Source: Promethearchaeota archaeon | Lineage (GTDB): Archaea; Asgardarchaeota; Lokiarchaeia; Sigyniarchaeales; SOKP01 | DNA: 17,062 nt | Assembly: GCA_016840085.1 (NCBI GenBank) | Contig: JAEOTA010000080.1 | Coordinates: 1 to 17,062, forward strand | Direction: 5' to 3' | Position numbers and translations under genes: made by a program | Notes under the pieces: generated by a model | Database searches by the model: none | Told to the model about the DNA's origin: nothing | The model's input: the letters and a program-made list of their open reading frames with translations, nothing else | Part shown: one piece after another, positions 1 through 17,062 of the stretch | Position numbering within the stretch: position 1 is the first letter of the stretch | Layout of the letters: every line of letters begins with the position of its first letter

Positions 1-127
1 AATTAATTCATTAATTAAAATAGAGGATTAGGCGAATTTAAGTCTGTCGTTTAGGAAAAACGTGATTTAATTAAGCCTCCAAAAGCTATAAATATTTTTG
101 TCGATGAAGGTAAATTAAAAATTATCT
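1..127 (+). repeat. Left copy of a perfect 127-bp terminal inverted repeat
   Basis: 1-127 is the exact reverse complement of 16936-17062. The first mismatch is at 128/16935. It contains TTAATTAA at 11-18 and 67-74 and an imperfect hairpin at 21-81. Confidence 0.97.
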
Positions 128-228
128 CTCCATTATAGTATAACTTTTAAGACTTGCTTATGTACTCTATATGGATTTAAACGTGTATAATAATATTATT
201 TATCATTTTCGTTTGAGGATGGTCAAGT

Positions 229-1140
229 ATGAGTAAAGTAAAGTTTGGAGTAACTATAAATGCTACACCGGATATGCTCTACAGATCTGATTACGATTCA
301 ATTAAAAAAATAGCACAGGAATGTGAAAGATTAGGTTATGACTCTCTTTGGGCCATGGATCACCTTATGTGGGGGTTTAATAATGAGGGAAGCGTGTTCG
401 AAGCTTGGACATTGCTTTCTGCCTTAGCTAGGGAAACCAAATTAATCAAGCTCGGACCCTTGGTGACGTGCAATGCTTTTAGAAATCCCACTCTGACAGC
501 CAAAATTGGGGCCACACTTGATATTATCTCCAATGGGAGATTAATATTTGCCTATGGTGCCGGTTGGAAGGGGGATGAACACGAAGCGTATGGATTTCGA
601 TTTAAGAATCGAGTCACACGAGTGAAACAAATGAGAGAAGGGATAACTCTAATAAAGAAGCTATGGACTGAAGAAAGAACGAGTTTTCAAGGAGATTTCT
701 ATGAAGCAAAAGAAGCAGTCTGTAAGCCAAAGCCCGTGCAAAAACCGCATCCTCCCATTATGATTGGAGGGGGTGGAGAAAAGCATACACTAAAGGTTGC
801 AGCCGAAATCGGTGATATCTGGGACGTGTGGGGGGCTTCTATAGAAGAATATAGAAGAAAGGTGAATATTCTACAAGAATACTGCGAGAAACTCGAAAGA
901 AAAATAGATGATATAGAACTCTCATGGAGTGGTCCATTTTTGATTGGAAAGAATAAAACAGATTTGAGTAAGAAAATTAGTAGGTATGGAGTTGTAAATA
1001 GCATTCTTTGTACCTATAACAACTGTATAGAAATACTGCAAGACTATATTGACTCAGGTTGCTCACAATTCATTTTTACTTTAAATTGTTTTAATGAGGA
1101 AAAGGAGACCTTTATGGAAGAAATAGCTTCATCATTTTAG
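229..1140 (+). CDS. Luciferase-like monooxygenase (LLM) class, probably F420-dependent oxidoreductase
   Basis: 303 aa with LLM motifs GYDSLWAMDHL, LLSALARETKLIKLGPLV, LDIISNGRL..GAGW and PKPVQKPHPPIMIGGGGEK. A purine-rich RBS-like gagga lies upstream of the ATG. Confidence 0.9.
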   Translation: MSKVKFGVTINATPDMLYRSDYDSIKKIAQECERLGYDSLWAMDHLMWGFNNEGSVFEAWTLLSALARETKLIKLGPLVTCNAFRNPTLTAKIGATLDIISNGRLIFAYGAGWKGDEHEAYGFRFKNRVTRVKQMREGITLIKKLWTEERTSFQGDFYEAKEAVCKPKPVQKPHPPIMIGGGGEKHTLKVAAEIGDIWDVWGASIEEYRRKVNILQEYCEKLERKIDDIELSWSGPFLIGKNKTDLSKKISRYGVVNSILCTYNNCIEILQDYIDSGCSQFIFTLNCFNEEKETFMEEIASSF

Positions 1141-1174
1141 AAAAAGATATAAAAAACACCAATAGAAAAAATAG

Positions 1175-1188
1175 GAGTCTTTTGACTC
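1175..1188. terminator. Small hairpin between convergent genes (possible terminator)
   Basis: gagtc-tttt-gactc, preceded by A-runs and followed by a T9 run at 1206-1214. Confidence 0.35.
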
Positions 1189-1232
1189 GAAGAAATTTAA
1201 ATAAATTTTTTTTTATCTAATTCCATTTTTGA

Positions 1233-1451
1233 TTATAAGGTGTATTTATATATTTTGCCGCATTTTCTACACCTTACTATAATGATATTGCTCTTCCGTC
1301 TAAAAATATAATCTGCTTCACTTTCCGCGCAAATATGTGGTTCATCCTCTATTATAAACCAGTGTTTTTCACATTCTTCACATATAAATATAAGATGATT
1401 CTGATCTCCTATTGAAATTATATTCTCAGAATTACAATACGGACATTCCAT
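1233..1451 (-). CDS. Small Cys-rich double zinc-ribbon protein (72 aa)
   Basis: MECPYC...CEEC...HIC...CRKC gives 8 candidate ligands. The start is moved from 1478 to ATG 1451 because a TATA-like CTATAAATA (minus strand, 1479-1487) sits about 30 nt upstream. Confidence 0.75.
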   Translation of the reverse strand: MECPYCNSENIISIGDQNHLIFICEECEKHWFIIEDEPHICAESEADYIFRRKSNIIIVRCRKCGKIYKYTL

Positions 1452-1476
1452 TTTTAAACTAAAGATATGGTAAAAC

Positions 1477-1490
1477 AATATTTATAGACT
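1477..1490 (-). promoter_or_regulatory. Archaeal TATA-like promoter of the zinc-ribbon gene
   Basis: The minus strand reads agtCTATAAATATT about 30 nt before ATG 1451. The same 11-mer occurs at 86-96 in the terminal repeat. Confidence 0.45.
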
Positions 1491-1612
1491 TCTTCAATAT
1501 TTAGTACCATAATTCATATCTAAAAAACTTCGTTATATACAGGAGTATATAATTTTTTATCAAAATCCATTTGATCAGGATTTTTTAAAACAATTAAATA
1601 AAGGTTAAGAAA

Positions 1613-2053
1613 ATGAAAACCCTTAAAGAATCTATAGAAATAAATGTACCTCCTGAAGTTATTTGGGAGTGGTTCTTACACCTCGCAGAGAATTATTGTG
1701 ATTGGCATCCTTCTCATATAAAAGCTTATTGGAAAAGTGGGATCCCTAATAAAATTGGCTCAGTGTTCTATGCTGAAGAGAATGTTGCTGGAGAATTATT
1801 AAAAATGAAATCTAAGCTAACTAAGTTTATCCCTAATAGATTATATAAATATAAAATGGTAAGTTCTTTAAAACTCCTTCTCCCTCGTGGTACTTTTGAA
1901 ATCAACCCTTCCGGAAAGGGTAGTTTTTTCACAGCAACTCTTGACTTTCGCATGGGGAATCTGCTTTCTAAAATTGCAAAGAAGAAAGTGAGAGAGATAA
2001 CTCAGCATATGATTGAAGAAGGACAAAATTTGAAAAGTATTTTAGAAACTTGA
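1613..2053 (+). CDS. SRPBCC (START/Bet v1/polyketide cyclase-like) family protein
   Basis: 146 aa with N-terminal ESIEINVPPEVIWEWF...YCDWHP and C-terminal helix ...EGQNLKSILE, typical of SRPBCC proteins. Confidence 0.8.
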   Translation: MKTLKESIEINVPPEVIWEWFLHLAENYCDWHPSHIKAYWKSGIPNKIGSVFYAEENVAGELLKMKSKLTKFIPNRLYKYKMVSSLKLLLPRGTFEINPSGKGSFFTATLDFRMGNLLSKIAKKKVREITQHMIEEGQNLKSILET

Positions 2054-2108
2054 AGTACTTATAGTATGCATGTTTTTACTTTAATACCAATAATTACCAT
2101 TAATCAAA

Positions 2109-2136
2109 GTATTATTACGGTTAATAATAATAATAC
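2109..2136. terminator. AT-rich inverted repeat between convergent genes
   Basis: gtattatta-N10-taataatac. Confidence 0.3.
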
Positions 2137-2144
2137 ATCTAATT

Positions 2145-3383
2145 TTAAATACGATACGCACGAAATAAACATGGAATTAACCGTACGCTGTTTGAAAGTC
2201 CCAGATACTTCATAAGTTTTCGTTTACGGGATAACATAACCTTCCAAATCTGTTTTCTTGTTTGACTCCTAGTAAACATCGCAATCATTGCTTGCCTCAT
2301 CTCAGGATCTTCTTGGGCTATTGAATATGCTGCATCAATAATTTTTTCTAATAATCTACTATGATATAAAAGAGTATGGATTTTGTATGAATATCTTAAC
2401 TCTTCTTCAAAAAGATGCTTTAGGAGGAGCTTATGATATCTTGCAAGACTGAGTTCCCCAAAATCTTCCTCTTCATAGGCTTTACAAAATATTTCTGCTG
2501 CTAATTTACCAGATAATCGAGCTTGGTAGATCCCTTCATATAAAATGGGGTCAGCAGTCCCACATGCATCACCAATAACCATTACATGCTCACGGTAGGG
2601 TTTTGAAATTATCCTGTCAGGAATAGGCGCCGCCCAAATCTTACGACTTTCAAATATTCTCATTTTTCTTCCAACAAGTTTCTCCTTTATGAGCGGATAA
2701 TGCAGGAATGCTTCAAAATGCCTCATCTTTATACTTTGGCCTAATATCCCAATACTTACAGCTTCTCGCTTTGGAAATGCCCAAGCGATACCATGTTCAC
2801 TTATACTGCGATCGAAGAATTCCCAGATTCGGTCACCGAATTTTTCTGTAATGTCAGATTCAGGCATTGCAAACTCGGCTTGTATTCCATTTATCATAGG
2901 TGGAACTTCAATTCCAAGATGCCTCTGGAGATGAGCACCACCAAGACCAGTTGCAAGAATTACACAGTTACTTCGAAATTCTTGAGGTCCTTTTACGACT
3001 ACCTCTTCGCCTTTGATCTCAATATTTTTAACTCGAAAACCATATGTAACCTCAGCACCCACGTTATGAGCTATATCTAAAAGGTATTTATCGAAATCTG
3101 TCCGAAACATACAGAAACCTTTGTCTTTCTCTCCTGTCGTATCGAAGTCCATAGGTTCCTTCTCAGGAGTGACTAAAACTCCTCCTGTTATTTCACGTTC
3201 ATCAACTCCGGATGGAATTGGTGTGAACTCCTCATTACTTACCGGAATACCACCAGCACAGCATTTGTATCGCCCTTCTTTCCCTGCTTCAAGTAGTAAA
3301 ACTTTTGCTCCTTTTTTTGCTGCAAATTTTGCAGCAGTAGCTCCACCTGGTCCTCCCCCAACAATTATCAAATCATAAGTCAT
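2145..3383 (-). CDS. Geranylgeranyl reductase family FAD-dependent oxidoreductase (GGR/DGGGPL reductase paralog)
   Basis: YDLIIVGGGPGG FAD-binding motif, KCCAGGI, RTDFDKYL, IAWAFPK (YxWxFP-like) and IGDACGTADPILYEGI. Confidence 0.85.
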   Translation of the reverse strand: MTYDLIIVGGGPGGATAAKFAAKKGAKVLLLEAGKEGRYKCCAGGIPVSNEEFTPIPSGVDEREITGGVLVTPEKEPMDFDTTGEKDKGFCMFRTDFDKYLLDIAHNVGAEVTYGFRVKNIEIKGEEVVVKGPQEFRSNCVILATGLGGAHLQRHLGIEVPPMINGIQAEFAMPESDITEKFGDRIWEFFDRSISEHGIAWAFPKREAVSIGILGQSIKMRHFEAFLHYPLIKEKLVGRKMRIFESRKIWAAPIPDRIISKPYREHVMVIGDACGTADPILYEGIYQARLSGKLAAEIFCKAYEEEDFGELSLARYHKLLLKHLFEEELRYSYKIHTLLYHSRLLEKIIDAAYSIAQEDPEMRQAMIAMFTRSQTRKQIWKVMLSRKRKLMKYLGLSNSVRLIPCLFRAYRI

Positions 3384-3496
3384 AAATAGTCCTTCATATT
3401 TTTTTTGAGGTCAAAAATCACTTAAATTTTAATAAAACTATTTAGTTCTTTAGTAATAGAGCATAATTTTATAAAAATTTTTAGAGGTTATTATAG

Positions 3497-6400
3497 TTGA
3501 GATTTTTAGTTTTAAGTCATCGTAACCCCATTTCTCCTCCATATATCTTTTTAAAAATGCCAGAAACGATTCAAAGAGATGATATTCAACAAGTTCCTTT
3601 ATTGATCGATCTCTATGAGAGTGGGTTTTTTAAACATACGTTTGGAACTTTTAAAACAGCAAATTTAATCTTTGAGATTCCCAGTGAATATTCAGGTACA
3701 AAAAAGGAGCGTCTTTTAATTTCATTAGTTATTGATGGCAAATCCGAAATAAATACTGCTTTAGCTCAGAAATTTTTAGAGGGATTTGTTGAAGATTTCA
3801 AAAAAATCGATGATGCGTTCAAGGCTTTTTATATGAACTCTACAAGTTATAAAGGAGATCCTATAAAACTAGAGGAAATTAGAGTACTTCTAAATACTTT
3901 TAATATTTCTTTTCCAGAAGAGGAAGTCATATTTGAACAAAAAGAAGCAAAAATCTTAATTTTTGGGCTTTCAATGGCGGGGAAAACAACAATAATTCGA
4001 ACGAGAAGGAAGTCAGTATCAAAAGCAATATTTCCAACAATAAATGTCGACATTTCTAGAATTTTAGTTAATAATGTATCTTTATTGACTTATGATATCC
4101 CTGGAAAATATAACGTTAAGGAACTATGGAAACCCTATCTAAAAAACCAAGATGGATTGATATTTGTTTTAGATGTTACAGATAAAGTAAAATTCTCATA
4201 TGCTCGTGAGTTACTGCATGAAATTGCGGGGAAACCAGAGTTAAGTGAATTACCACTTCTTATCCTTTTTAATAAGATTGATTTAAAACAACCAGATATA
4301 AAAGATCTAGAAGATGCTATGGGACTGAAGAAACTTGGAAAGAGACCAATAAAATCATTTTTGACAAGTGGAATTAAAAATATTAATATTGATGAGGCAT
4401 TTAACTGGCTTTCCCTAAAAATTGCAGAGAGGGTAGAACAATTTACTCCAAAAAGCGAGGTTGGGATAATTTTATGTCGATGGGATGAAAATTTAGGTAT
4501 TAAAGCCGAAGCTGTATATCCTAATGATGCTTTTGAAAATCCAGAATTAATATCTATTAAAAGTGTTTCAATATCGCAATTTATTTTTAAAGGAGATGAA
4601 TTTAAACCAACGTCCGTAATTCTTCCATTTCCTCACCTAAATTCCAATGCAGCTATTTATTTTGACTTTATTGAAAATGAGAGTATTAGAGGCGGTTTAT
4701 TACCCTTATCTTTAATAATTTATTACAGTGAAAAAATTCCTAAAAATATAATTAACCAATTTAGTTCATTCATTGTTAAGCAATTTAACGACATAAAAAA
4801 GAATTATCTTGATAAAAAACAAGTGGAAGATATTCTTCAATCTATTCATAGTACGATAATTAATCAAATAACTTTATTTCAGCCTTCAATTGAAGCGCTA
4901 AAAATAGCTGAATTACGTTATGAGGCTTTATTTAAAGCTGCTCGAGATGCTATTTTAATTATTGATAAAACCTCAGGAATAATAATGGATGCTAACAAAG
5001 AAGCGGAGGAGTTATTTCAACGGCCATTTGAGGATTTTATTGGATTACATTCAAGTCAAGTATTAAGTGGGATTATTAATATAGATTTTAATGAAGAAGT
5101 ATTTGATCCTCTTGATTATCCCTTTCCTTTAAGATTAGAGGTCATTGATAATTCTGGTAATCTTATTCCAGTGGAAATTAGTGTAAGTGAAATCCAGATG
5201 GGGGGGCAAATCTTTGCCCAATATATTATTCGAGATATTACTATGAGAATAGAATCAGAAATTAAATTAAAGCATTCTGAAATAAAGTATCGTCACCTTT
5301 TCAAAGATTCACCTTTTTCTATTCTTTTAATTAATCCTAAAGGTTTTTTAGTTGATATTAATCCTGCTTTAGAAAAAACGTTAGGATATGCAAGAGAGGA
5401 ATTAATAGGACGAAAATTTGTTGATCTTTCACTAATACATCAAGATTATATAGTGGAGGTTCTTAAAAGATTTAAAAAAGAAGAAAGAGGTAAAATTTTT
5501 CCTTCAATAGAAATTCAGCTTTATCAGAAAAATGGCAGACTCATTTGGGTAAATATGCAATCATCTTTAGTTGATATTGGTGAAAATACATTTTATCAAA
5601 TAATATGTCAGAATATAACAGAACAGAAAAAAATAGAACAGGAATTAAAGAAGATATCAAGATTAAAAGCTATAATTACCGAAATAGTATCTAGATTTGT
5701 TGGTATAAAAGATTTTACTGAAGCACTCATTCTTTCACTTAGAGATATTGGTGAATTTGTTCATGCAACAAGAGCTTATCTTTATATTTTTAATAATATT
5801 TACGATTTCACGAAAAGAAATTATATATGGTATAGTAAATTAATGTATCCCAAAATTGGCTTGCCTAAAAACATATTAATTAATGATTTTCCATGGGTAA
5901 TTGAGAAATTAAAAATGTCTGATTATTTTTACATTAAAAATGTAAATAACCTTCCTGAACAAGCAACAAAATTGAAAAATTTTCTTAAAATTCATAAAAT
6001 TGAAAACCTTTTAACATTTTCAATAAAAATTGACGGCACCTTAGAAGGAATAGTTTGTTTTGATAATATAACAGAGGAGGATTATTGGATAGAAGAAAAT
6101 CTAGAATTATTAAGTATTATTTCAGATATCCTTAAAAATGTGATATTACGTAAAATAGCTGAAGAGAATTTACGTTTAAGTAAAGAATCTATTCACCAAG
6201 AATTTGATAGAGAGTATTTTTATAAGGAGCTATTTGTAAATGATATAAATACTATAATAAAGAGCATTCAATCCCTATTAGATGAATGTATCAAACAAGA
6301 TAATCAAATTATATTAAAATCTAGAAGAGAATTATTAGATTCTATTAAAGATCAATGTATAAACGGTAAACTTTTAATACATATAATAAAAAGGTTGACA

Positions 6401-6868
6401 TTACTTAATGAAGCAAAAATTATGATTGAACCTGTGAATTTAATTAATGTAATTCAGAATGTTATTGAATTTGTTACAAATAATTATTCTAATAAAAAAA
6501 TTGATATAATAGTTGAACATCCAAATGAGGATCTATATGTAAAAGCTGATAAGTTTCTAATAGATGTTTTTTTCAATATCATTTTTAGTTCAATTCGATA
6601 TAATAAAAAACCAATAATAGAGATTAAAATTATTATCTTTAGAAATCAAATAGAGAACGAAAATTATATTAAAGTAAAATTTGTCGATTATCAGAAAGAA
6701 ATTTTAAACATCGGGAAAGAAATGATCTTCAATAAAGAAAGAGAAAAAGATGATAAGATCAAAGAAATAATTTTAGGATTTCTTTTAGTGGAGCGAGTTT
6801 TAAATAATTATAGTGGAAAAATATGGGTTGAAGGAGATTCTTTTGTAATTTTATTACCTGAAGCTTAA
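3497..6868 (+). CDS. Multidomain signalling protein: longin-like, Arf-like small GTPase, longin/uDENN-like, PAS, PAS, GAF, degenerate HisKA/HATPase
   Basis: GTPase motifs: G1 GLSMAGKT (3965-3988), G2 FPT, G3 DIPG (4094), G4 NKID (4271), G5 TSG. PAS motifs: RYEALFKAARDAILIID...DANKEAEELF...RDIT and KYRHLFKDSP...INPALEKTLGYAREELIG...QNITEQK. GAF-like region ending EENLELLSIISDIL. Kinase-like tail FYKELFVNDIN...VKADKFLIDVFFNII...GKIWVE. Start is TTG (alternative ATG 3557). Confidence 0.85.
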   Translation: MRFLVLSHRNPISPPYIFLKMPETIQRDDIQQVPLLIDLYESGFFKHTFGTFKTANLIFEIPSEYSGTKKERLLISLVIDGKSEINTALAQKFLEGFVEDFKKIDDAFKAFYMNSTSYKGDPIKLEEIRVLLNTFNISFPEEEVIFEQKEAKILIFGLSMAGKTTIIRTRRKSVSKAIFPTINVDISRILVNNVSLLTYDIPGKYNVKELWKPYLKNQDGLIFVLDVTDKVKFSYARELLHEIAGKPELSELPLLILFNKIDLKQPDIKDLEDAMGLKKLGKRPIKSFLTSGIKNINIDEAFNWLSLKIAERVEQFTPKSEVGIILCRWDENLGIKAEAVYPNDAFENPELISIKSVSISQFIFKGDEFKPTSVILPFPHLNSNAAIYFDFIENESIRGGLLPLSLIIYYSEKIPKNIINQFSSFIVKQFNDIKKNYLDKKQVEDILQSIHSTIINQITLFQPSIEALKIAELRYEALFKAARDAILIIDKTSGIIMDANKEAEELFQRPFEDFIGLHSSQVLSGIINIDFNEEVFDPLDYPFPLRLEVIDNSGNLIPVEISVSEIQMGGQIFAQYIIRDITMRIESEIKLKHSEIKYRHLFKDSPFSILLINPKGFLVDINPALEKTLGYAREELIGRKFVDLSLIHQDYIVEVLKRFKKEERGKIFPSIEIQLYQKNGRLIWVNMQSSLVDIGENTFYQIICQNITEQKKIEQELKKISRLKAIITEIVSRFVGIKDFTEALILSLRDIGEFVHATRAYLYIFNNIYDFTKRNYIWYSKLMYPKIGLPKNILINDFPWVIEKLKMSDYFYIKNVNNLPEQATKLKNFLKIHKIENLLTFSIKIDGTLEGIVCFDNITEEDYWIEENLELLSIISDILKNVILRKIAEENLRLSKESIHQEFDREYFYKELFVNDINTIIKSIQSLLDECIKQDNQIILKSRRELLDSIKDQCINGKLLIHIIKRLTLLNEAKIMIEPVNLINVIQNVIEFVTNNYSNKKIDIIVEHPNEDLYVKADKFLIDVFFNIIFSSIRYNKKPIIEIKIIIFRNQIENENYIKVKFVDYQKEILNIGKEMIFNKEREKDDKIKEIILGFLLVERVLNNYSGKIWVEGDSFVILLPEA

Positions 6869-7123
6869 AAATTGAGAATTCAGAAAAAACACAATTGGGT
6901 TTTGATGAAATATATTGAACTACAAAGCTCATTTTCTTGCTTTTCTCACTTTTTTATTATTTTTCTCCTTTTCAGTTGAAAAATCTATCATTTTATCATT
7001 ATTTAATACACTATTAAACGTAAAAGATGTGATGCTAAATATCAATTTTCATCGTTTTTCTTCATTTCAGAGTGAACATGTATTTATATCAAGATGAAAT
7101 TCAATAATATCTTGTGGTTAAAA

Positions 7124-7798
7124 ATGAATGAATTGAGTCTTGAAGATATAAAACAACATATAAATCAACAAAACCTATATCAGCAATCCAAACGAAAAAA
7201 TAAGAGATTAGCAGGAATAATTGCACCTCCAATTTTGATGTTAGCCATGTTTCTCATTTATACCTTATTTGGTATAATTTTTGGAAATGAGGTTGGGTGG
7301 TATTTGGGATTGTTTGTATATTGGATGCTATGTGGATTATTATTTTCAATATGGCTTATTGGTTTTGAAAAGATTAAACAATTGAGTGTACCTCGAAAAT
7401 TGAAATTAAAATTGATTCCTTTAATTATATTTCCTGTGTTAATGGCATTTATTTTTAGGTACTTTTCAGGAACAGAATACAATAAAATAAACATATTGGG
7501 CGCTCTATTGCTTGTGATAACGGCGTTTGGAAATGGAATCTTTGAAGAAATATTATGGTGAGGAGTCTATATGGAATTATATCCAAATAATTATTTCATG
7601 AGAATTATCTATTCCACAATCTGGTATGCAATGTTTCACTTTGCCTCAGGAAGTCTATCTTCAAATTCTAATGTGTTGGGTTTAGTAATTGGATCTGCAT
7701 TTTTTGGAATATGTCTAGCTTTTTTAGCTAAATGGACCGATACTATTTGGTGGAGTATCCTCTGTCATGTCTTAGGTGGTCTAGTCGTAGTTGCATAA
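7124..7798 (+). pseudogene. CPBP (CAAX protease type II / Abi) intramembrane protease interrupted by an in-frame TGA at 7559-7561
   Basis: ORFs 7094-7561 and 7571-7798 are in the same frame and read FEEILW*GVYMELYP. The stop replaces the Arg of the EExxxR motif. Later motifs are YAMFH and CHVLGG, with multiple TM segments. Likely start is ATG 7124. Confidence 0.8.
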
Positions 7799-7810
7799 AT
7801 TAGATAAAAA

Positions 7811-7853
7811 AAAGAAAGAAATGACACTTCGATTGGGGTTATTTCTTTTAATT
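7811..7853. repeat. Diverged direct repeat copy A (relic of the amidohydrolase 3' end)
   Basis: Matches 9561-9603 at 38/43 positions, and 30/33 over 7821-7853. The minus strand encodes LKEITPIEVS versus LKEIIPIEV* in the intact gene. Confidence 0.85.
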
Positions 7854-7947
7854 CTGAATCGATTCCAAAAAAATGTTATTTCTACAGCTAAATGCCTATA
7901 AAAAAATAAAAAATTAGATGAAAGAAAAGCAAATAATAGGACAGATT

Positions 7948-9456
7948 TTAAAAGATCCCATCCCATACTATTCTCTCCATCTTGAAAGGATCATCGACCA
8001 CTTTTATTTCAGGGCCAAAGATCATTGTAGACCTATTTTTAAGTTCATAAGGGCTCCATTTAGGGATGCCATCATGGTCAGGATTTCCGTTTTGAGCATA
8101 TGAAATCCAAGACTTCATCATCTTTTTGCTGAGAACGTCGGTTTCCTTACTTTTTTTCGGCACAATCCCTCTTGCTGTTTCGCTGAATCTTCCAAAAACA
8201 AAAGTAATTTCAAGTGCATGGCAAGCACCCAATTTTCCTCCCATTTCAGGTGATTTATATGTAAAAAGATAAGAGAAAACGTTAGGTTGGTGTATACATT
8301 GAGCTTCTGCTAATCTTATACCAGAGACTCTAAATCTGAAATCGGTTGTTATTGCGTCTAGAATTTCCTGGGGTTCTGTAGGAAGCTTACCCTCTCGCGC
8401 TTTTTTATATGTATCGATGACTTTCTGAGTAACGCCTCCATCTTGATTAAAAAACCCTATGATGCTGTTGGTTCTTTTAAATAAACCCTCTTCATCAAGT
8501 ATTTTCCTTGGAGGGGCTATAGCTGAGTATAATTTCATTTCATCTTGATTTGTACCCACTATAAGTTCCAGATCGGACGCAAAGCCATCTCGAATCGCTT
8601 CAAGGGGATGTTTTGGCAATGATTTGCCATCGATAAAAACTCCATAAGGAAAATTTCTACCTTTTGCACGGGCTTCCAATTCCATTTTAGTTTGGACATC
8701 CACAATTTTTTGTGTAGGCACCTTTTTTAGTAGTTCAAGGTCGAATCTTTTTAGACCCAGCTCCCTCATGATCCGTTCAGCGCCTTTAATTCCGACCTTA
8801 GGATGGAAACTGCCCGGATGAACAGCCCCACTTTGAGAAATTACCCGATTAAACAATCCTTTTGCTGCAGGCATAGCCATTAACGTAGAAACTGCCACTC
8901 CACCAGTAGATTCACCAAAAATTGTCACATTGCTCGGATCTCCCCCAAAAAGAATGATGTTATCTCGAACCCATTCAAGTGCTGTGATTTGATCCAATTG
9001 CCCTAGATTCGCAATATCATCTTGAATAAAAATATAACCGAATATACCAAGACGGTAGTTTATTGAAACGATAACTGCATTACCGAATTTTGCCAAATTC
9101 GTTCCGTCTGTTAATGAACCACTACCGAAAGAAAATCCCCCTCCATGTATCCAAAATAAAACAGGACGCTTGGCATCATCCACTCCCGGAGTCCATACAT
9201 TTAAGGTTAAACATTTCTCTTCATCTTGTAATGGAGGTGGGTGAGGGGTGAAAAATGAATCTCTTTGGGGTACATCAGGACCGAATTTTGTACAATCGAG
9301 TACACCACTCCAAGGTTCTTTTCGGATGGAGGGTCTGAACCTTAATTTTCCGACAGGTGGCTCTGCATATGGAATTCCCTTGAATTTCTTTATCCCTTCT
9401 CTTTCATATCCTTTAATTTTACCTTGTTTGGTTTCAATAATTATCTCTTTCTCCAC
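7948..9456 (-). CDS. Type-B carboxylesterase/lipase (para-nitrobenzyl esterase-like)
   Basis: FKGIPYAEPPVGKLRF, EKCLTLNVWTP, oxyanion HGGGF, nucleophile GESTG, acid GTNQDE and His GACHALE. GTG start preceded by aaggagatgg. Confidence 0.93.
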   Translation of the reverse strand: MEKEIIIETKQGKIKGYEREGIKKFKGIPYAEPPVGKLRFRPSIRKEPWSGVLDCTKFGPDVPQRDSFFTPHPPPLQDEEKCLTLNVWTPGVDDAKRPVLFWIHGGGFSFGSGSLTDGTNLAKFGNAVIVSINYRLGIFGYIFIQDDIANLGQLDQITALEWVRDNIILFGGDPSNVTIFGESTGGVAVSTLMAMPAAKGLFNRVISQSGAVHPGSFHPKVGIKGAERIMRELGLKRFDLELLKKVPTQKIVDVQTKMELEARAKGRNFPYGVFIDGKSLPKHPLEAIRDGFASDLELIVGTNQDEMKLYSAIAPPRKILDEEGLFKRTNSIIGFFNQDGGVTQKVIDTYKKAREGKLPTEPQEILDAITTDFRFRVSGIRLAEAQCIHQPNVFSYLFTYKSPEMGGKLGACHALEITFVFGRFSETARGIVPKKSKETDVLSKKMMKSWISYAQNGNPDHDGIPKWSPYELKNRSTMIFGPEIKVVDDPFKMERIVWDGIF

Positions 9457-9493
9457 TTTTTGACCATCTCCTTAAATTATCTCATAATTATAC

Positions 9494-9508
9494 ATTATAA
9501 CTTTTTTA
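9494..9508 (-). promoter_or_regulatory. BRE/TATA-like promoter of the esterase
   Basis: Minus strand TAAAAAAGTTATAAT about 38 nt before the start. An identical 15-mer lies at 11333-11347. Confidence 0.55.
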
Positions 9509-9560
9509 ATTACTTTCTTTTATGTCTCAAAATCTTTAATAACAAAATAAAATAAAAAAC

Positions 9561-9603
9561 AAAGAAGAAAATTACACTTCGATCGGGATTATTTCTTTTA
9601 ATT
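9561..9603. repeat. Direct repeat copy B (last codons, stop and downstream T-tract of the amidohydrolase)
   Basis: aaagaagaaaattacacttcgatcgggattatttcttttaatt, offset 1750 bp from copy A. Confidence 0.85.
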
Positions 9604-11299
9604 TTTTTATCTTTTTAACCTTTGGATTTTTAATAAGATGTCCTTGAATGATAACTTTTATGACTTGTCCTAAGTAATCTATTTCTTCTAAAGGGTTACC
9701 TGGAACTACTATAAGATCAGCAAATTTACCATTTTCAATACTTCCCGTAAATTCATCTATTCCGATATTTTCAGCGTTTCCTTTTGTAGCGTAATATATG
9801 GCTTCCTGAGGAGTCATTTCAGTATATTTTAAGTAGTATTTTAATTCTTTCCAGAATTCATATTGTAAGGAATAAGGAACAGATGCGTCAGTACCACATG
9901 ATATTCTCAGATTTTCTTTATAGGCTTTTTGCAATGCCAAGATCATACCTTTTTCAATCAGCTTTGCGTTTTCAAAACTTTCTTTTGTAATTTTTGTTTC
10001 TTCTTTGGGTAAAACTGCCATTCCCATACCTGCAGAAATTGTAGGGGCAATAACCGTATATCCTCTTAGGGTTTTAGAATTATTCCTAATTAATGGCACT
10101 AAGTCATCAGTTATTTCAGCAGCATGTTCTATACTATCAACTCCTCCCTTTAAAACTTCTCTAATTCCTTCTGTGGATTCACAATGGGTTGCAACTAATA
10201 ATCCGCCTCTGTGAGCTTCAAAACATGCTGTTTCTATTTCTTCTGTAGTCATTTGAGGTCGTCCAGCTTCACCCACTTTTCTAGCATCCATAACTCCTCC
10301 AGTAGAAAGTATTTTGATATGGTCCACTTTCATTCTTAAATTCTGTCTTACAGCTTTTCTGATTTCAGGGATAGAATCTGCCACAAACGCATTAACCCAT
10401 CCATGCCCTCTCGTAATACAAATTCCTTTACCTGCGCACAGTAATCTAGGTCCAATTATTTTACCCTTGTTAATCTTATCTCTTAGTTTTAAATCAACAT
10501 ACAAGGGATCGGACATAGAACGCATTGTTGTGACTCCACTGTTTAGTGCATTTAAAACATTTTTCTTCATAAGTTTGAATAAAATTATTTTTCCGAATGG
10601 CGTGGCAAGGAATTTAAATATTCTTTTCATACTTTTATCGCTCAATTTCATCAATTTAGTAGGTTTCCCGCTCCCTATTAAATGACAATGTGAGTTAATT
10701 AAACCAGGTAGAACATAAGCTCCTTTTAAATCGATTTCTTTATAATCATTGGGAATTTGAATTTCGTTTTCAGTCCCAATACCAACAATTTTGCCTGGGA
10801 TTTCCTCTTTTTCTGTAAGATTTTTAATTAGGATAACTCCCTTCGAAATTATTTTACTATCCTTATTACCATCAATAATATTACAATTTACTATTGCTAA
10901 ATTGGTTTTTGGTTCCTTTTTCTTGTTTTTTGATCCTGATAACCACGATATAATGAGATACATTAAGAAAATATTAATTAAACTAGCGATAATAGAAACA
11001 AACCAAAACCATATAGCAGGTAACCAACTGGAATTCAAATGAGAAATGTTTAATGTTAAATTATACATTTTAAAACCAAAGATTCCTAACACATCCAGTA
11101 TACCCAATGGAATACCTACAAATGGAATAATCCACGGGTAGAAATTTAAAATCCCAACGATTAAATAGGCTAAAGTCCCAAAAATGCCCTCGTATGTGCC
11201 ATAGGTTATCCATGCTAATAAGGCTATGAAAATTATAAAGATCAACATTGACAATAAGCATGTTAACTTAAACTCTGAATTCTTATTATTTTCACTCAT
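9572..11299 (-). CDS. Metal-dependent amidohydrolase (Xaa-Pro dipeptidase-like subgroup) with an N-terminal multi-TM segment
   Basis: PGLINSHCH (HxH), GVTTMR, HIKI (carbamylated Lys position), THCES, SIEHA, GTDA and GSIENGKFADLIVVPGNPL. The first ~120 aa are hydrophobic. Confidence 0.88.
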   Translation of the reverse strand: MSENNKNSEFKLTCLLSMLIFIIFIALLAWITYGTYEGIFGTLAYLIVGILNFYPWIIPFVGIPLGILDVLGIFGFKMYNLTLNISHLNSSWLPAIWFWFVSIIASLINIFLMYLIISWLSGSKNKKKEPKTNLAIVNCNIIDGNKDSKIISKGVILIKNLTEKEEIPGKIVGIGTENEIQIPNDYKEIDLKGAYVLPGLINSHCHLIGSGKPTKLMKLSDKSMKRIFKFLATPFGKIILFKLMKKNVLNALNSGVTTMRSMSDPLYVDLKLRDKINKGKIIGPRLLCAGKGICITRGHGWVNAFVADSIPEIRKAVRQNLRMKVDHIKILSTGGVMDARKVGEAGRPQMTTEEIETACFEAHRGGLLVATHCESTEGIREVLKGGVDSIEHAAEITDDLVPLIRNNSKTLRGYTVIAPTISAGMGMAVLPKEETKITKESFENAKLIEKGMILALQKAYKENLRISCGTDASVPYSLQYEFWKELKYYLKYTEMTPQEAIYYATKGNAENIGIDEFTGSIENGKFADLIVVPGNPLEEIDYLGQVIKVIIQGHLIKNPKVKKIKKLKEIIPIEV

Positions 11300-11332
11300 G
11301 ATGTATCACGATAGATGAAAAGTGAAATAAAA

Positions 11333-11347
11333 ATTATAACTTTTTTA
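11333..11347 (-). promoter_or_regulatory. BRE/TATA-like promoter of the amidohydrolase
   Basis: Minus strand TAAAAAAGTTATAAT about 34 nt before ATG 11299, identical to 9494-9508. Confidence 0.55.
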
Positions 11348-11467
11348 TACAGTTAAAATGAGTGTTAATCTTTTTATTACAAATTGAATTTTTAGGAAAG
11401 AGGAAATAATAAAATAAAAAAGATACAACACATTTTTATGAAAAATATTTCAAAGAGATGAGATTTT

Positions 11468-12130
11468 ATGGAAAAGAAAAAATTAATAACCATTGTTGGA
11501 ATGGGACCGGGTAATGGAATGGGTATTGCACAACGGTTTGGAAAAGAAGGCTTTTCAGTCGCAATGATTTCCCGAAATGAAGAAAAATTACAAAAACTCC
11601 AAGGAGAACTGATAAGTAAAGGAATAAATGCTCATTATTTTGTGGGGGATGCAAGTATTGAAAAATCCTTAAAAAAAGCGTTTCAACAATTAAAAGTAAA
11701 ACTTGGGAGCACAGATGTGTTAATCTACAATGCAGCCCGTTTAAAAATGAGGAATATTCTTGAAGAACGATTCGAATCTTTAGTTACTGATTTTAAAGTA
11801 AATGTAGCCGGACTTTTAGTCGCTGTTCAAGAGGTGCTTCCATCAATGCTAAAAAAAAATGAAGGGACCATTCTGGTTACTGGAGGACATCTGGGTATTG
11901 AACCTCATAAAGAATTTGCTTCGCTTTCTATAGGAAAGGGGGCACTTACTAACCTGGTTAAAGTATTAGCAGCAGAATTAACCCCAAAGAATATCCATGT
12001 CGGTTCGCTTATTATTTGTGGGATTATAAGTCCAGAAAATGAGAAATACAATCCAACAGCAATAGGAGAACAATTTTGGAAATTATATACTCAGAAAAAG
12101 GAAGAATTTGAAGTAGAAATCTTATATTAG
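11468..12130 (+). CDS. Short-chain dehydrogenase/reductase, atypical active site
   Basis: IVGMGPGNG Rossmann motif, DVLIYNAA and GTILVTGG. The YxxxK position reads LSIGK (no Tyr). Confidence 0.88.
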   Translation: MEKKKLITIVGMGPGNGMGIAQRFGKEGFSVAMISRNEEKLQKLQGELISKGINAHYFVGDASIEKSLKKAFQQLKVKLGSTDVLIYNAARLKMRNILEERFESLVTDFKVNVAGLLVAVQEVLPSMLKKNEGTILVTGGHLGIEPHKEFASLSIGKGALTNLVKVLAAELTPKNIHVGSLIICGIISPENEKYNPTAIGEQFWKLYTQKKEEFEVEILY

Positions 12131-12133
12131 GCA

Positions 12134-12145
12134 GAAATGCATTTC
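12134..12145. other. Perfect 12-bp palindrome in the short gap between convergent genes
   Basis: gaaatgcatttc is its own reverse complement. Confidence 0.3.
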
Positions 12146-12170
12146 ATCTTGAATCCCTAGTTTTTCAAAT

Positions 12171-13580
12171 TTATTTTTTTGAAGGTTTTTCTTTAGTTTT
12201 TACATATTTCAAATATTCGATTTCTTTTTTCTCATGAATTTGAATTATTTCCGCTTTTTGAGAAAGCCATTCTGGACCATCAAGAGGGTAAAAAAACATT
12301 ACTAGTGCCCCTAAGATCAAAAAAATGGAGGGAATAAGTGCAAAACCAATCATAATTCCCAATTGAGCAGAGAAATTTTGAGTCTGTTGTTCTGAATCGA
12401 ATCCGAAAAATGTTATTATTAATAGAAACAACCAATTTGCAAGGGAAATCGCCGGTTTTGTAAGTAATGCATTTATTCCAGAATAGGTTGTTTCCCTGCG
12501 CTTTCCCGTTCTTGTTTCATCATAATCAACAATATCAGCTACAACCACTTGGTGTGTAAGCATATATCCTGAAATTCCGATCCCTATTAGGATGCATCCA
12601 ATTATTGCAAGCTCAAACGACCATCCAATAAAAAAGCTTAGAAGAAAACTCAATCCTGTCCACATCATTGTTAAAATAAAGGTTTTTTTAACCCCGTATT
12701 TCCCAATTAATCTATTAAATATTGCCAAGAAAGCAAAAATCATTATGAAGACTATCAATAATGGAAACGTAGTGGCAATGCCAGTTAAGGTTAAGACATA
12801 ATCAACATAATAAAAAATCGCGGTAGTAAGGATTGTTTGGGCAATAGTGAAAGAAAAATTGGATACTTCAAAAATTAAAAAAGGTGTGTTTTTAAATGTT
12901 TCTTTTATTCCTTTGATGATTGGAAGTGTTTCTTCCATTTGTGTATATTTATTTTCTTTTAAGTAAAAACTACTAATAAATATCAATATAGCAGAAATAA
13001 TGCCCACAAAAATCATTGTAATAAGAAAAGGTGTGATAAGATCAGGTGATTCAATTCCGGTTAATAAAAATATTGGTAATATGAAAGAAATTAAAAGTGA
13101 GATAGAAGTTATTATATTACTATATATCAATAAATTAGCTCTTTCTTTTGAGGCTAATGCCATTTCTGCAGGAAGAGTAAAATTTATGAGCCCTAATATT
13201 GTAAATAGGGTATCAAAGACAAACAGGACAACAATTAAATTGATAAAAAGGGCTATTTGATTATTTACATCTACAAATGGAAACCAACATAAAATGAACA
13301 CTATTCCATAAATCGGAGCCCCGAATCGAATATATGGAATTCTCCTACCATATTTTTCTGATTTGGTGTGATCTTCTAAGAAACCAAATATAGGATCATT
13401 GATGGCATTCCAAAAGGAAAAGATTAACCACGCAATTCCTATTAATACCGCACTCAACCCTAATATTATGTTATAAAAGAAAGTTATCGCTGAAAATGCA
13501 ATTTGAGAAGGTAAGCCAATACCCGCTCCAAAACCCCCATATGCTAATTTCGATTTTAACGACAATTCTTCGTTTGGCAA
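12171..13580 (-). CDS. MFS transporter, glycoside-pentoside-hexuronide (GPH, MelB-like) family
   Basis: WNAINDPIFGFLED, KYGRRIPY and ADIVDYDETRTGKRRETTYSG, with about 12 TM segments. TTG start. Confidence 0.9.
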   Translation of the reverse strand: MPNEELSLKSKLAYGGFGAGIGLPSQIAFSAITFFYNIILGLSAVLIGIAWLIFSFWNAINDPIFGFLEDHTKSEKYGRRIPYIRFGAPIYGIVFILCWFPFVDVNNQIALFINLIVVLFVFDTLFTILGLINFTLPAEMALASKERANLLIYSNIITSISLLISFILPIFLLTGIESPDLITPFLITMIFVGIISAILIFISSFYLKENKYTQMEETLPIIKGIKETFKNTPFLIFEVSNFSFTIAQTILTTAIFYYVDYVLTLTGIATTFPLLIVFIMIFAFLAIFNRLIGKYGVKKTFILTMMWTGLSFLLSFFIGWSFELAIIGCILIGIGISGYMLTHQVVVADIVDYDETRTGKRRETTYSGINALLTKPAISLANWLFLLIITFFGFDSEQQTQNFSAQLGIMIGFALIPSIFLILGALVMFFYPLDGPEWLSQKAEIIQIHEKKEIEYLKYVKTKEKPSKK

Positions 13581-13700
13581 TATATTATCAATTTTAATAT
13601 GGATCTATAGTTATAATTAAATCTTTAGGATTCAGAAAAAAAGGATTGAAATAAATGGAAATCATAAAAATGTGGGCTTGGATGAGATAAAACAAATTAA

Positions 13701-16700
13701 TTAATTTTCTAAATCAGAAATTATTTTTTTAATCTCTTCTACACGTTCAATGTTGCCCATCCCTCGATATGTATTCATTAAATATTCCAGGATTTTCAAA
13801 TCGTGGGGATTTAATTCTAAAGCTTTTTTGTAATAAATTTCAGCTTTAGAATAATTGCCTGTGTTGTAATATAAACCCGCAAGGTTTTGTAGTGTATCAT
13901 AATCCTTAGGATTAGATAAGAACATTCTTTTAAGAATCCATTCTCCTTTAGCAGTTTGTCTGGTGTTAAAATAAATGCGTGCTAGCATGTTTAACGTGTT
14001 CTTATCAGTTATATCCAATTCTAATAATCTCTTATAAACCTCCTCTGCTTTATCATATTGTTTTTGATTTAAATAAATAAATCCGAGATTAGAATACGGC
14101 TTAAGATACTTAGGATTAAGATTTAGAGAATTTTGCCAATATTCATGTGCTTTTTCAAAATCATTCCTATAATAATAAACTGTTCCAAGGATATTCAAAG
14201 CAGGGAGAAAATTAGGGTTGATTTCTAATACTCTTCTGACATATTCCTCAGCTTTATCAAAATCTCTCATTTTTAAGTAAGTAAAAGCGAAGATGTATAT
14301 TATCAAAAAATTATCAGTAGATTCAAACTTCTTTAGTAACTCTAAAGCTTGCTCAAATTCCTGTCTATTGACCTTGCATAAGACTGTACCCGCAGTGGCA
14401 TTTATTGAAGTTGAATTAATAACCAATACCTTTTGGAAGCAAATTGATGCTTCCTCAAATTTATTTAAAAATGCTAGGAGAAAGCCTTTAGCATTTAATA
14501 TTGGTTCTTCTTCAATTTCCTTCTGAAGTAATTCTAAAATCTTTTCTAAATAAACTCTCCCTTTTTCTTTTTCCCAGAGATATCCTTCTAATGTATATGG
14601 ATTAACATTAACATCTCTAAAAATATCATCCAAATTTATTTCATTTACTAGCAATTCAAGCTGTGGTAATCTATTTTCTTCCCATCTTTTGAAGGTTTTT
14701 TCTAAATCTTCCACATCTTGTAGTTTTCGTTTTAATTGAGTAAGTCCATAGTTAAAATCTTGGACTTCTGGAGTCGATCCGAATCCGCCTTGAATAGCTA
14801 TATCTATTGCTTCTTCAAGAGTTTCAATTGCATTCGATATTCTTCCTTGATTATAATATACCATGGCAATATCATTATATGTACCTGAGATTCCACCTAT
14901 ATCATTCGCTTTTTCATAATAGTCAAGAGCTTGTTCATAACTTTTCAAGGCATTTTGATAATCTCCAATATCTTTGTAAAAGGTACCCACTTTTTTAAGA
15001 TCAAACAAAACTCGTGGCATATCATTTAATCTTTTGTCTATTGGTAACGCTTCCTCTAGTAACTTTACCGCTTTATCTTTAGAATTTAGTTCACTATACA
15101 ATAAAGCCATATTTGTTAAGTAAATAGCTTTTTTTGCGAGATCTCCCAATATTTCTACCTTTTCCAACGCTTTTTCATAGTTTGCTAAAGCTAACTTTTT
15201 TTTCCCTTGTTGGGCATAAATTGATGCTATATTGTTTAAACGCACTGTTATTCCATTTAAATCACCTAATTCCTCGGAGATTTGTAAAGCTTCTTGAAAT
15301 TTTTCTAATGCATTTTCATATTCATTTTTAGAAAAATAAACAGAGCCTATATTACTAAGAAGCCGCGATTTAATACCTAAATCTCCTAATTTTTTATTTA
15401 TTTCTAAAGCTTTTTCATAATACTCAAAGGCTTCTTGATATTTCCTGTCTGAGAAGTATGTTAGACCAATATTATTTAGAATTGTAATTTTGTCTATAAC
15501 ATTTTGGGAGCTTTCAACAGTTTCTAGAGCTTTTTTCAGCCACACTATTGCTTCTTGATAATTTCTTTGAGATTTAAACACCATACCTATATTATTCAGA
15601 GTCATGGAACTGCGTTCAATAGCACCCAGTTCTAACGCTTTTTCATAACATTCTAAAGCTTTTTCAGGATCCCCTTTATCTAGATATATTAAACCATTAT
15701 TGTTAAGGAATGATGATTCTAACTCGATATTTCCTTTTTCTTTTGCTAGTTTTAATCCTATTTCTCCTATTCTAAGCGCAGCATCTGGTTGTGCTAACCT
15801 ATAGTACACTTCCCATGTGAATAATAGTTTTTTAATCTCATCAATGGGTTCTAGGGTCTTATAAAACCAATTTTCAGAATCGAATTCAATTGGAGAAATT
15901 TCAATGAAATTAGGTTGATTTAATCCATTAAGTAATAGCGTCCAAATGAATCTTCGGATAAAAATGGAGGTGTTTACATTGACTTTAAATATTTTAATTG
16001 GATTATCAAGAATAGCTGAATTATGAGCTAATTCTCTTAAGAAGGAAGTTACCCTATCGACATTTCCTGACTGATTTTCAGAACTTGCTTCAATACTAAC
16101 AATTTCTGGAACCTCAGCAGATGTATGATTTATCCATATTATTTTAGAAATATTTTGTAATTCTTTCAGAGTAGGACTAATATCAAAATCATCACTCCCT
16201 GAATATCCCATTACAAATAAAGTCCTTCCTTCTAGGAGATTAATTAATGCGGGTTTTTTGTAATCCTCAATCGCAAAGGTTGTTTCATCCCGATCCCTCC
16301 CTAAAGCAGATATGGTTGTAATTAAAGAATCCCGTGTATCTTCATCAGTTATAATATTTTTTTTAGATCCATGGATTTTATAAATCAGAAGTTTGCCTTC
16401 TTTTGTTAAATTACTTGGATTAGCATAATTCATGAAATCATTGCGAGTAATTATAGGTAATATTTTCAATTTATCTTCGATAATATTTAGTAACGCAAAT
16501 TCTATAAGATAATCAAAATTAGTCGTAATTACTTGGTGTCCCTGATCAAGACTATGAGCTAGAAAATAATGAAGAATATTTGGCCGAGTATAATTGTCAA
16601 AGAAATCCATTATTCTTAACTCTTGATCAAAATATTTTTGAATAAATTCTATGACTGTTTCATATCGTAAACCTTCTAAGGATAAGACTTTACTAACTTC

Positions 16701-16850
16701 TTCATCAGGTACACATAATTTCACAAGGGTTTTTACTATCTCAACTGCAGATTTGAGACCTGAAGGTTGCTCTATCGAAATTCCAGCACCAACTAGAAAT
16801 GTGAATTTTTCATTGGGACGGATAATTTCCTTTAATTCATGGAGAACCAT
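13701..16850 (-). CDS. SIR2-like (SIR2_2) domain plus tetratricopeptide repeat protein
   Basis: FLVGAGIS, ITTNFDYLIE, YKIHGS and LFVMGYSGSDDFDI in the N-terminal ~245 aa. Many TPRs follow, of the types LNNIGxxY...A..YEKAL and NLG..Y...KAE..YK...ELN. Confidence 0.9.
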   Translation of the reverse strand: MVLHELKEIIRPNEKFTFLVGAGISIEQPSGLKSAVEIVKTLVKLCVPDEEVSKVLSLEGLRYETVIEFIQKYFDQELRIMDFFDNYTRPNILHYFLAHSLDQGHQVITTNFDYLIEFALLNIIEDKLKILPIITRNDFMNYANPSNLTKEGKLLIYKIHGSKKNIITDEDTRDSLITTISALGRDRDETTFAIEDYKKPALINLLEGRTLFVMGYSGSDDFDISPTLKELQNISKIIWINHTSAEVPEIVSIEASSENQSGNVDRVTSFLRELAHNSAILDNPIKIFKVNVNTSIFIRRFIWTLLLNGLNQPNFIEISPIEFDSENWFYKTLEPIDEIKKLLFTWEVYYRLAQPDAALRIGEIGLKLAKEKGNIELESSFLNNNGLIYLDKGDPEKALECYEKALELGAIERSSMTLNNIGMVFKSQRNYQEAIVWLKKALETVESSQNVIDKITILNNIGLTYFSDRKYQEAFEYYEKALEINKKLGDLGIKSRLLSNIGSVYFSKNEYENALEKFQEALQISEELGDLNGITVRLNNIASIYAQQGKKKLALANYEKALEKVEILGDLAKKAIYLTNMALLYSELNSKDKAVKLLEEALPIDKRLNDMPRVLFDLKKVGTFYKDIGDYQNALKSYEQALDYYEKANDIGGISGTYNDIAMVYYNQGRISNAIETLEEAIDIAIQGGFGSTPEVQDFNYGLTQLKRKLQDVEDLEKTFKRWEENRLPQLELLVNEINLDDIFRDVNVNPYTLEGYLWEKEKGRVYLEKILELLQKEIEEEPILNAKGFLLAFLNKFEEASICFQKVLVINSTSINATAGTVLCKVNRQEFEQALELLKKFESTDNFLIIYIFAFTYLKMRDFDKAEEYVRRVLEINPNFLPALNILGTVYYYRNDFEKAHEYWQNSLNLNPKYLKPYSNLGFIYLNQKQYDKAEEVYKRLLELDITDKNTLNMLARIYFNTRQTAKGEWILKRMFLSNPKDYDTLQNLAGLYYNTGNYSKAEIYYKKALELNPHDLKILEYLMNTYRGMGNIERVEEIKKIISDLEN

Positions 16851-16935
16851 ACGTTTTCACAGATAAATTTTTTATTAGTTAATATAAACTGATTAAATTC
16901 AATAATTAGTTATAAAATAAATATCATAGTTTCAA

Positions 16936-17062
16936 AGATAATTTTTAATTTACCTTCATCGACAAAAATATTTATAGCTTTTGGAGGCTTAATTAAATCA
17001 CGTTTTTCCTAAACGACAGACTTAAATTCGCCTAATCCTCTATTTTAATTAATGAATTAATT
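16936..17062 (-). repeat. Right copy of the 127-bp terminal inverted repeat
   Basis: The reverse complement reads aattaattcattaattaaaatagaggattaggcg...taaattaaaaattatct, identical to 1-127. Confidence 0.97.

Follow-up and report, generated by a model that had tools for sequence, protein, structure and literature searches.

An apparent 127-bp terminal inverted repeat on a Lokiarchaeial contig very probably marks a chromosomal interval between two oppositely oriented insertion sequences

The stretch of DNA analysed here, referred to as the window, is an entire contig (G000:C77, hereafter C77) of 17,062 bp from a Lokiarchaeial metagenome-assembled genome (MAG) of about 4.7 Mb, which consists of 89 contigs with 178 ends. 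Its two termini, positions 1-127 and 16936-17062, are exact reverse complements over 127 nt (100% identity), which goes far beyond what chance would give, the likeness breaks off sharply at 127/128, and the two terminal genes (229-1140 on the plus strand and 13701-16850 on the minus strand) point inward, as had been stated in the original prediction. The question raised by this locus is whether the contig is an element in its own right, since a non-autonomous cargo transposon, an invertible or composite segment and a small linear element with terminal inverted repeats (TIRs) had all been proposed for it. The results presented below make it very probable that the window is an ordinary chromosomal interval located between two separate, oppositely oriented insertions of an insertion sequence (IS), and not a new mobile or linear element. 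The 16.8-kb interval between the repeats has no function as a unit.

The length of the repeat is the first point to be considered. The comparison of the terminal sequences of all the contigs revealed 30 groups in which a terminal 127-mer is common to at least two contig ends. When all pairs of ends were compared for shared prefixes of at least 25 nt, the prefix was 127 nt long in 32 pairs, 126 nt in six and 124 nt in two, 61 of the 178 ends being involved, and no pair shared more than 127 nt. A collapsed repeat shares exactly k bases with each unique contig that borders it; where both ends of one contig run into a single repeat node, that contig will display an apparent TIR of length k. Judging from the contigs alone, the length of 127 appears to have been set by the assembler, as the k-mer overlap that remains when a de Bruijn-graph assembly is run up to k = 127. 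The same exact-k overlap at contig ends is found in such assemblies produced with SPAdes or metaSPAdes, and no difference from them was noted. The caveat that accompanied the original prediction, according to which 127 could be the assembler k and the repeat only the innermost part of a longer multi-copy repeat that had been collapsed, with two inverted copies flanking the segment, was therefore well founded.

The repeat itself is slightly shorter than the overlap. One end of C79 carries the same terminal 127-mer as both C77 ends, while C33 and C80 are identical to them over 126 nt and then present an A where C77 and C79 have a T. Because of this difference, the biological repeat stops at base 126, and base 127 (T) is a flank base that matches C79 by chance. 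The final 21 nt of the 126-nt repeat are GAAGGTAAATTAAAAATTATC, directly followed by the flank. This 21-mer has 16 exact copies in the genome, every one within 400 nt of a contig end, and beyond it each copy enters different unique DNA. Nine of these ends, named A ends, are of the 126-nt type and lie at or near contig ends with 94-100% identity (both C77 ends, C79, C33, C80, C41, C12, C74 and C86). The seven B ends (C18, C24, C25, C26, C36, C57 and C72) have in common with the A ends only the last 21 nt.

What lies beyond the contig ends can be read from copies that extend further. In C12 and C74, which carry slightly diverged copies, the sequence runs further outward and shows a ribosome binding site and the start of an open reading frame (ORF) on the opposite strand, which encodes an 82-amino-acid (aa) N-terminus with a CxxC...CxxC zinc ribbon and weak matches to InsA and to IS1/IS1595 zinc ribbons. 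The ATG of this transposase gene would be located 21 nt past each end of the window, that is, beyond base 1 on the left side. The absence of any mobility enzyme, which had been noted for this segment, holds for the contig, as Pfam detected no transposase, recombinase, polymerase or terminal protein in any window ORF; it holds only because the transposase gene starts just outside it.

A search with this N-terminal fragment, restricted to longer proteins, retrieved 420-aa relatives with up to 88% identity, all of them with the PF13610 domain and nearly all encoded on stand-alone contigs of about 1.5 kb. The closest one, P0001, is located on L037 and is 88% identical to the fragment. L037:19-1510 is a complete IS of 1,492 bp with a 420-aa gene and perfect 21-bp inverted repeats (IRs), both identical to the window terminus. 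Its left end (L037 19-144) is 87% identical to window 1-126 in reverse strand, and its right end matches the B ends with 92% identity. In the B ends, a coding sequence reading toward the 21-mer specifies a protein C-terminus that is 97% identical to residues 384-420 of P0001. Furthermore, the closed genome G032, from the same order, contains at least three copies of a 1.5-kb element with IRs of about 22 bp resembling that of the window IS and with 8-bp target duplications. Its 458-aa protein matches the N-terminal fragment at residues 38-108 and the C-terminal fragment at residues 416-451, the latter with 42% identity. Since the A and B ends match the two ends of the complete IS of L037, they are the left (IRL) and right (IRR) ends of one IS.

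Regarding these data, the first 126 nt of the window (1..126, minus strand) correspond to the outermost part of an IS left end, comprising IRL and most of a 146-nt leader, with the 21-bp terminal inverted repeat at 106..126 on the minus strand (GATAATTTTTAATTTACCTTC read from the outside in). The same outermost 126 nt of a second copy occupy 16937..17062 on the plus strand, with IRL at 16937-16957. The transposase of the left-hand IS reads leftward and that of the right-hand IS rightward, both out of the window. The body of the IS (about positions 407-1295) is absent from the bin, and it was presumably lost as a collapsed contig of less than 2 kb under a length cut-off, the smallest contig of the bin being 2,249 bp. 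Full-length copies are probably present at both ends of the window.

Separate insertions are supported by the target-site duplications. For six of the seven B ends, the 8-bp flank is exactly the reverse complement of the flank of an A end, compared to 0.003 such pairs expected by chance. The paired ends are C12-C72, C41-C24, C77 (right end)-C26, C79-C25, C80-C57 and C86-C36, and each pair also supplies a scaffolding link between its two contigs. In the window, the duplication copy of the right-hand IS, GTTTCAAA, is located at 16929..16936 on the plus strand, and the same 8-mer directly follows IRR at C26:198-205. Because GTTTCAAA flanks the IS on both sides, the right-hand IS is best described as a solo insertion into DNA that was formerly continuous from C77 into C26. 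On the other side, the presumed duplication copy of the left-hand IS is TCTCCATT at 127..134 (plus strand), the flank directly after the IR, in which base 127 is the base shared by chance. Copy number, neighbouring transposases and target-site duplications had been indicated as the features to look for, and a multi-copy IS end, an adjacent transposase gene and six 8-bp pairs were found.

Comparison with relatives provides further evidence. Contig C24 of G024 (46 kb), which belongs to the same genus, carries orthologues of both terminal window genes, and its interior is colinear with C77:208-16941 and devoid of the IS, the exceptions being insertions and one local gene-order swap. At the right junction, G024 43023-43074 aligns with C77:16877-16936 and the adjoining 43076-43124 aligns with C26:206-254 (39/49 identical). 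The score of this alignment with C26 is 29, versus 18.6 ± 1.6 for shuffled sequences with a maximum of 25. Hence, G024 presents an uninterrupted site in which the end of C77 is followed by ATTTCAAC and then by the continuation found in C26. Based on the duplication pairing and this empty site, the adjacency of the C77 right end and C26 is ancestral. The repeat is an IS end scattered over the genome (16 ends) and gene order is kept across the right junction in a relative, which is largely the situation that the original prediction had named as speaking against a special element.

A search for empty-site alleles had been proposed; at the left junction, G018 and G021 also lack the IS. These two genomes align with the window from base 127/131 on, and upstream of this point they carry unrelated IS-free DNA. 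Upstream of the left junction, G018, G021 and G004 differ from one another in sequence, and this DNA has no match to any contig end of the present genome. A luciferase-like monooxygenase paralogue (75-78% identical) was observed at G024:C24:10052-10960 and 13564-14472 and at G000:C56:17784-18692; the luciferase-like paralogues are 2.6 kb apart in G024 and on separate contigs (C56 and C77) here. This separation indicates that rearrangement within the genus has affected the neighbourhood on the left side of the window.

Several observations weigh against two simple, full-length insertions. Only 126 nt of each flanking IS copy are visible, and a truncated copy or a solo end would look alike. For the left-hand IS, no IRR-bearing partner with the flank AATGGAGA was found in the bin (allowing up to four IR mismatches), by synteny or in an exact scan of public metagenomes; as its partner contig is missing, only the right-hand copy is demonstrated to be a simple insertion. 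In addition, past the right junction the intergenic DNA of G024 diverges after an empty-site match of only about 50 nt. G055, which lacks the IS, diverges about 12 nt before the right junction and is uninformative beyond it. An IS-free right junction of the same species was not found in an exact 30-mer scan of metagenomes either.

Taking both sides into account, two independent insertions of one multi-copy 1.49-kb IS would explain the window, each with its transposase-proximal end (IRL) toward the interval. The element would be moved by a DDE transposase, with an N-terminal zinc ribbon and a PF13610 catalytic domain, that binds the 21-bp IRs, and insertion would take place through an 8-bp staggered cut at the target. 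At k = 127, the assembler would then have merged the near-identical IS copies into one node, leaving the abutting unique contigs to end with exactly 127 bases of overlap.

Among the other explanations, the one that survives best is that homologous recombination between the inverted IS copies flips the 16.8 kb in part of the population. Recombination can act on inverted 1.5-kb copies such as these, whose visible 126 nt are 100% identical, and the collapse of the IS hides which flank now joins which. However, there is no positive evidence of inversion, the adjacency of the C77 right end and C26 is the ancestral one according to the duplication pairing and the G024 empty site, and the gene content gives no hint of a phase-variable switch, so an invertible segment is considered unlikely. 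The proposal of an invertible or composite segment flanked by inverted copies of a longer repeat was thus right in its structural part; neither inversion nor movement of the unit finds evidence. It is improbable that, in the natural population of this species, the block inverts actively or is mobilised as a whole from time to time.

A composite transposon, in which the 16.8 kb would be cargo moved by the IS copies on either side, could also be suggested by the near-identical inverted copies that bracket accessory-looking metabolic genes. Tn5 and Tn10 are compound transposons with inverted IS arms, and the window resembles them in having two inverted copies of one IS around unrelated genes. Nevertheless, a unit that had moved would show a single duplication, shared by the outer ends of its two IS arms, and this is contradicted by the right-hand IS, whose inner flank (16929-16936) equals its own outer flank (C26:198-205) as in a solo insertion. 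Unlike in Tn5 and Tn10, there is no sign that the unit has moved, the genes being at their ancestral locus: at this locus, G024 carries these genes without the IS and in conserved order, one local gene-order swap apart. Moreover, at least nine copies are spread over 4.7 Mb, and chance alone should give some adjacent inverted pairs. If this IS behaves like the IS6 family, functional compound transposons would need direct and not inverted copies (PMC7986276). A composite transposon is therefore very unlikely, and the individual duplication of the right-hand IS together with the position of the genes at the same locus in a congener also speaks against the non-autonomous cargo transposon that had been put forward.

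Even less support is found for a mis-join or chimera at one end of the contig, with only one IS copy truly abutting the interval. The contamination estimate of the MAG is 7.6%, which leaves some room for such an artefact, but the colinearity of G024 covers 208-16941, the right end has its duplication partner and the left flank matches relatives from base 127, which makes it extremely unlikely. As for a small linear plasmid or virus with 127-bp TIRs, identical inverted termini on a complete contig would fit it, but it is practically refuted, given that the same terminus is present at seven other contig ends and runs into a transposase gene, the repeat length is the genome-wide overlap length, no polymerase or terminal protein was detected with Pfam, and a congener has a 46-kb chromosomal contig whose interior is colinear with the interval.

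An ordinary interval between two IS insertions also carries a caution for short-read MAGs. Contig ends that are exactly reverse-complementary over the assembler k point to a unique interval between two inverted copies of a collapsed repeat, and they are not the signature of a TIR-bounded element. Comparing the terminal k-mers of all contigs and pairing their flanks through the target duplication is a quick check. Another contig of this genome, C32 (37,236 bp), is also self-inverted at its ends. Its terminal 127-mer is present only at its own two ends and its inner flanks remain similar past the 127-mer; C32 is probably flanked by two diverged paralogous genes that form an inverted pair.

Concerning the genes of the interval, the first one (229..1140, plus strand) encodes a luciferase-like monooxygenase (PF00296, E = 8.7e-51) with orthologues of 73-82% identity in congeners. 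It is followed by an SRPBCC/polyketide-cyclase-like protein (1613..2053, plus; PF10604, E = 2.8e-12) and an FAD-dependent oxidoreductase (2145..3383, minus; Pyr_redox_2, DAO and FAD_oxidored matches). The gene at 3497..6868 (plus) encodes a 1,123-aa protein in which an Arf-family GTPase is fused to PAS domains (PF00025, E = 4.3e-35; PAS_9, E = 8.1e-25), with a sub-threshold match to the histidine-kinase domain HATPase_c (17.2 bits versus a cut-off of 26.4). Typically for Asgard archaea, the Arf GTPase belongs to the eukaryote-signature domains, and here it is wired into a prokaryotic-style sensor protein.

Downstream, two short ORFs of 155 and 75 aa are located at 7094..7798 (plus). The second one (7571-7798) encodes a fragment of the Rce1-like/CPBP family (PF02517, E = 1.3e-6) and no Pfam match was found for 7094-7561; the region may represent a split or decayed CPBP gene. 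The remaining genes encode a carboxylesterase (7948..9456, minus; PF00135, E = 1.2e-113), an amidohydrolase (9572..11299, minus; PF01979, E = 3e-36), a short-chain dehydrogenase (11468..12130, plus; PF00106, E = 3.7e-32), an MFS_2 transporter (12171..13580, minus; PF13347, E = 2.3e-66) and, at 13701..16850 (minus), a protein with a SIR2-like domain and a long TPR array (PF13289 and many TPR families). G024 encodes an 80% identical orthologue of the latter, and its luciferase-like orthologue is located on the same contig. One copy of a 48-nt direct repeat (7806-7853 and 9556-9603, 88% identical) follows the carboxylesterase gene and another the amidohydrolase gene. The order of these two genes is swapped in G024, a minor local rearrangement that took place between homologous intergenic sequences.

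Returning to the IS, the pattern of its copies suggests a recent expansion. Five A ends are mutually 100% identical, the transposase N-terminal fragment had no match in the 24 same-genus genomes searched (weak evidence of absence, as MAGs often lack repeats), and the exact IR is present seven times, mostly near contig ends, in another Promethearchaeota MAG (AMARA_1S). Lokiarchaeia would thus harbour an active, recently expanded 1.49-kb DDE IS, with at least nine copies in this genome, an unremarkable extension of what is known of the Asgard mobilome. The IS left end at C74:1-407 is only 94% identical and shows stops and a frameshift in the transposase N-terminus, being an older, decaying copy among otherwise near-identical ones. 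It was also observed that a hairpin at window 21-81 sits in the IS leader, between IRL and the transposase start, and that a similar stem appears in the centroid fold. A stable structure was not supported by the folding of the minus strand of window 1-126 (-11.4 kcal/mol, z = 0.02 versus shuffles).

Elements related to this IS by their termini were also found in the genome. Five elements of about 1.35 kb (C85:106673-108020, C19:301476-302822, C19:193138-194485, C78:57060-58403 and C78:224944-226291) encode only a TnpB-like protein of 396-398 aa, and partial copies are present at the ends of C9, C11, C44 and C60. They could be ruled out as intact copies of the window IS, since they encode TnpB. 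Their inverted repeats of about 21 bp are identical to the IR of the DDE IS at 17-18 of 21 positions, and exact 8-bp direct repeats flank three of the five full-length copies, which suggests that they are solo TnpB elements mobilised in trans by the DDE transposase of the flanking IS. Both DDE-associated and solo TnpBs with inverted terminal repeats have already been described (PMC10691335).

As for its classification, P0001 matches Pfam PF13610 (DDE_Tnp_IS240) with 46.6 bits over a cut-off of 27, a match that spans only the first ~85 of the 139 profile positions. Against NCBIfam, the IS6 equivalog NF033587 gave 44.5 bits, below its cut-off of 125, and the IS1 model NF033558 was nearly equal (43.7 bits, cut-off 100). 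The element is consequently described, from its sequence, as an IS6-like, unclassified DDE IS.

Typical members of the IS6 family measure 789-880 bp and encode transposases of 213-254 aa, which reach 340-450 aa in clades h and i (PMC7986276). The window IS shares with the long clades h and i of IS6/IS26 the PF13610 domain, short IRs, 8-bp target duplications and an N-terminal CxxC zinc ribbon (PMC7986276), and, as in these clades, it has a single ORF read from the left end. Its 420-aa transposase is also close to the ~450 aa of clade i (PMC7986276). In contrast, it differs from the family in its NCBIfam score, in an IR that begins with GA and in its host, a Lokiarchaeial archaeon. With 1,492 bp and 420 aa, it falls outside the range of typical IS6 members and is compatible only with the atypical long clades (PMC7986276).

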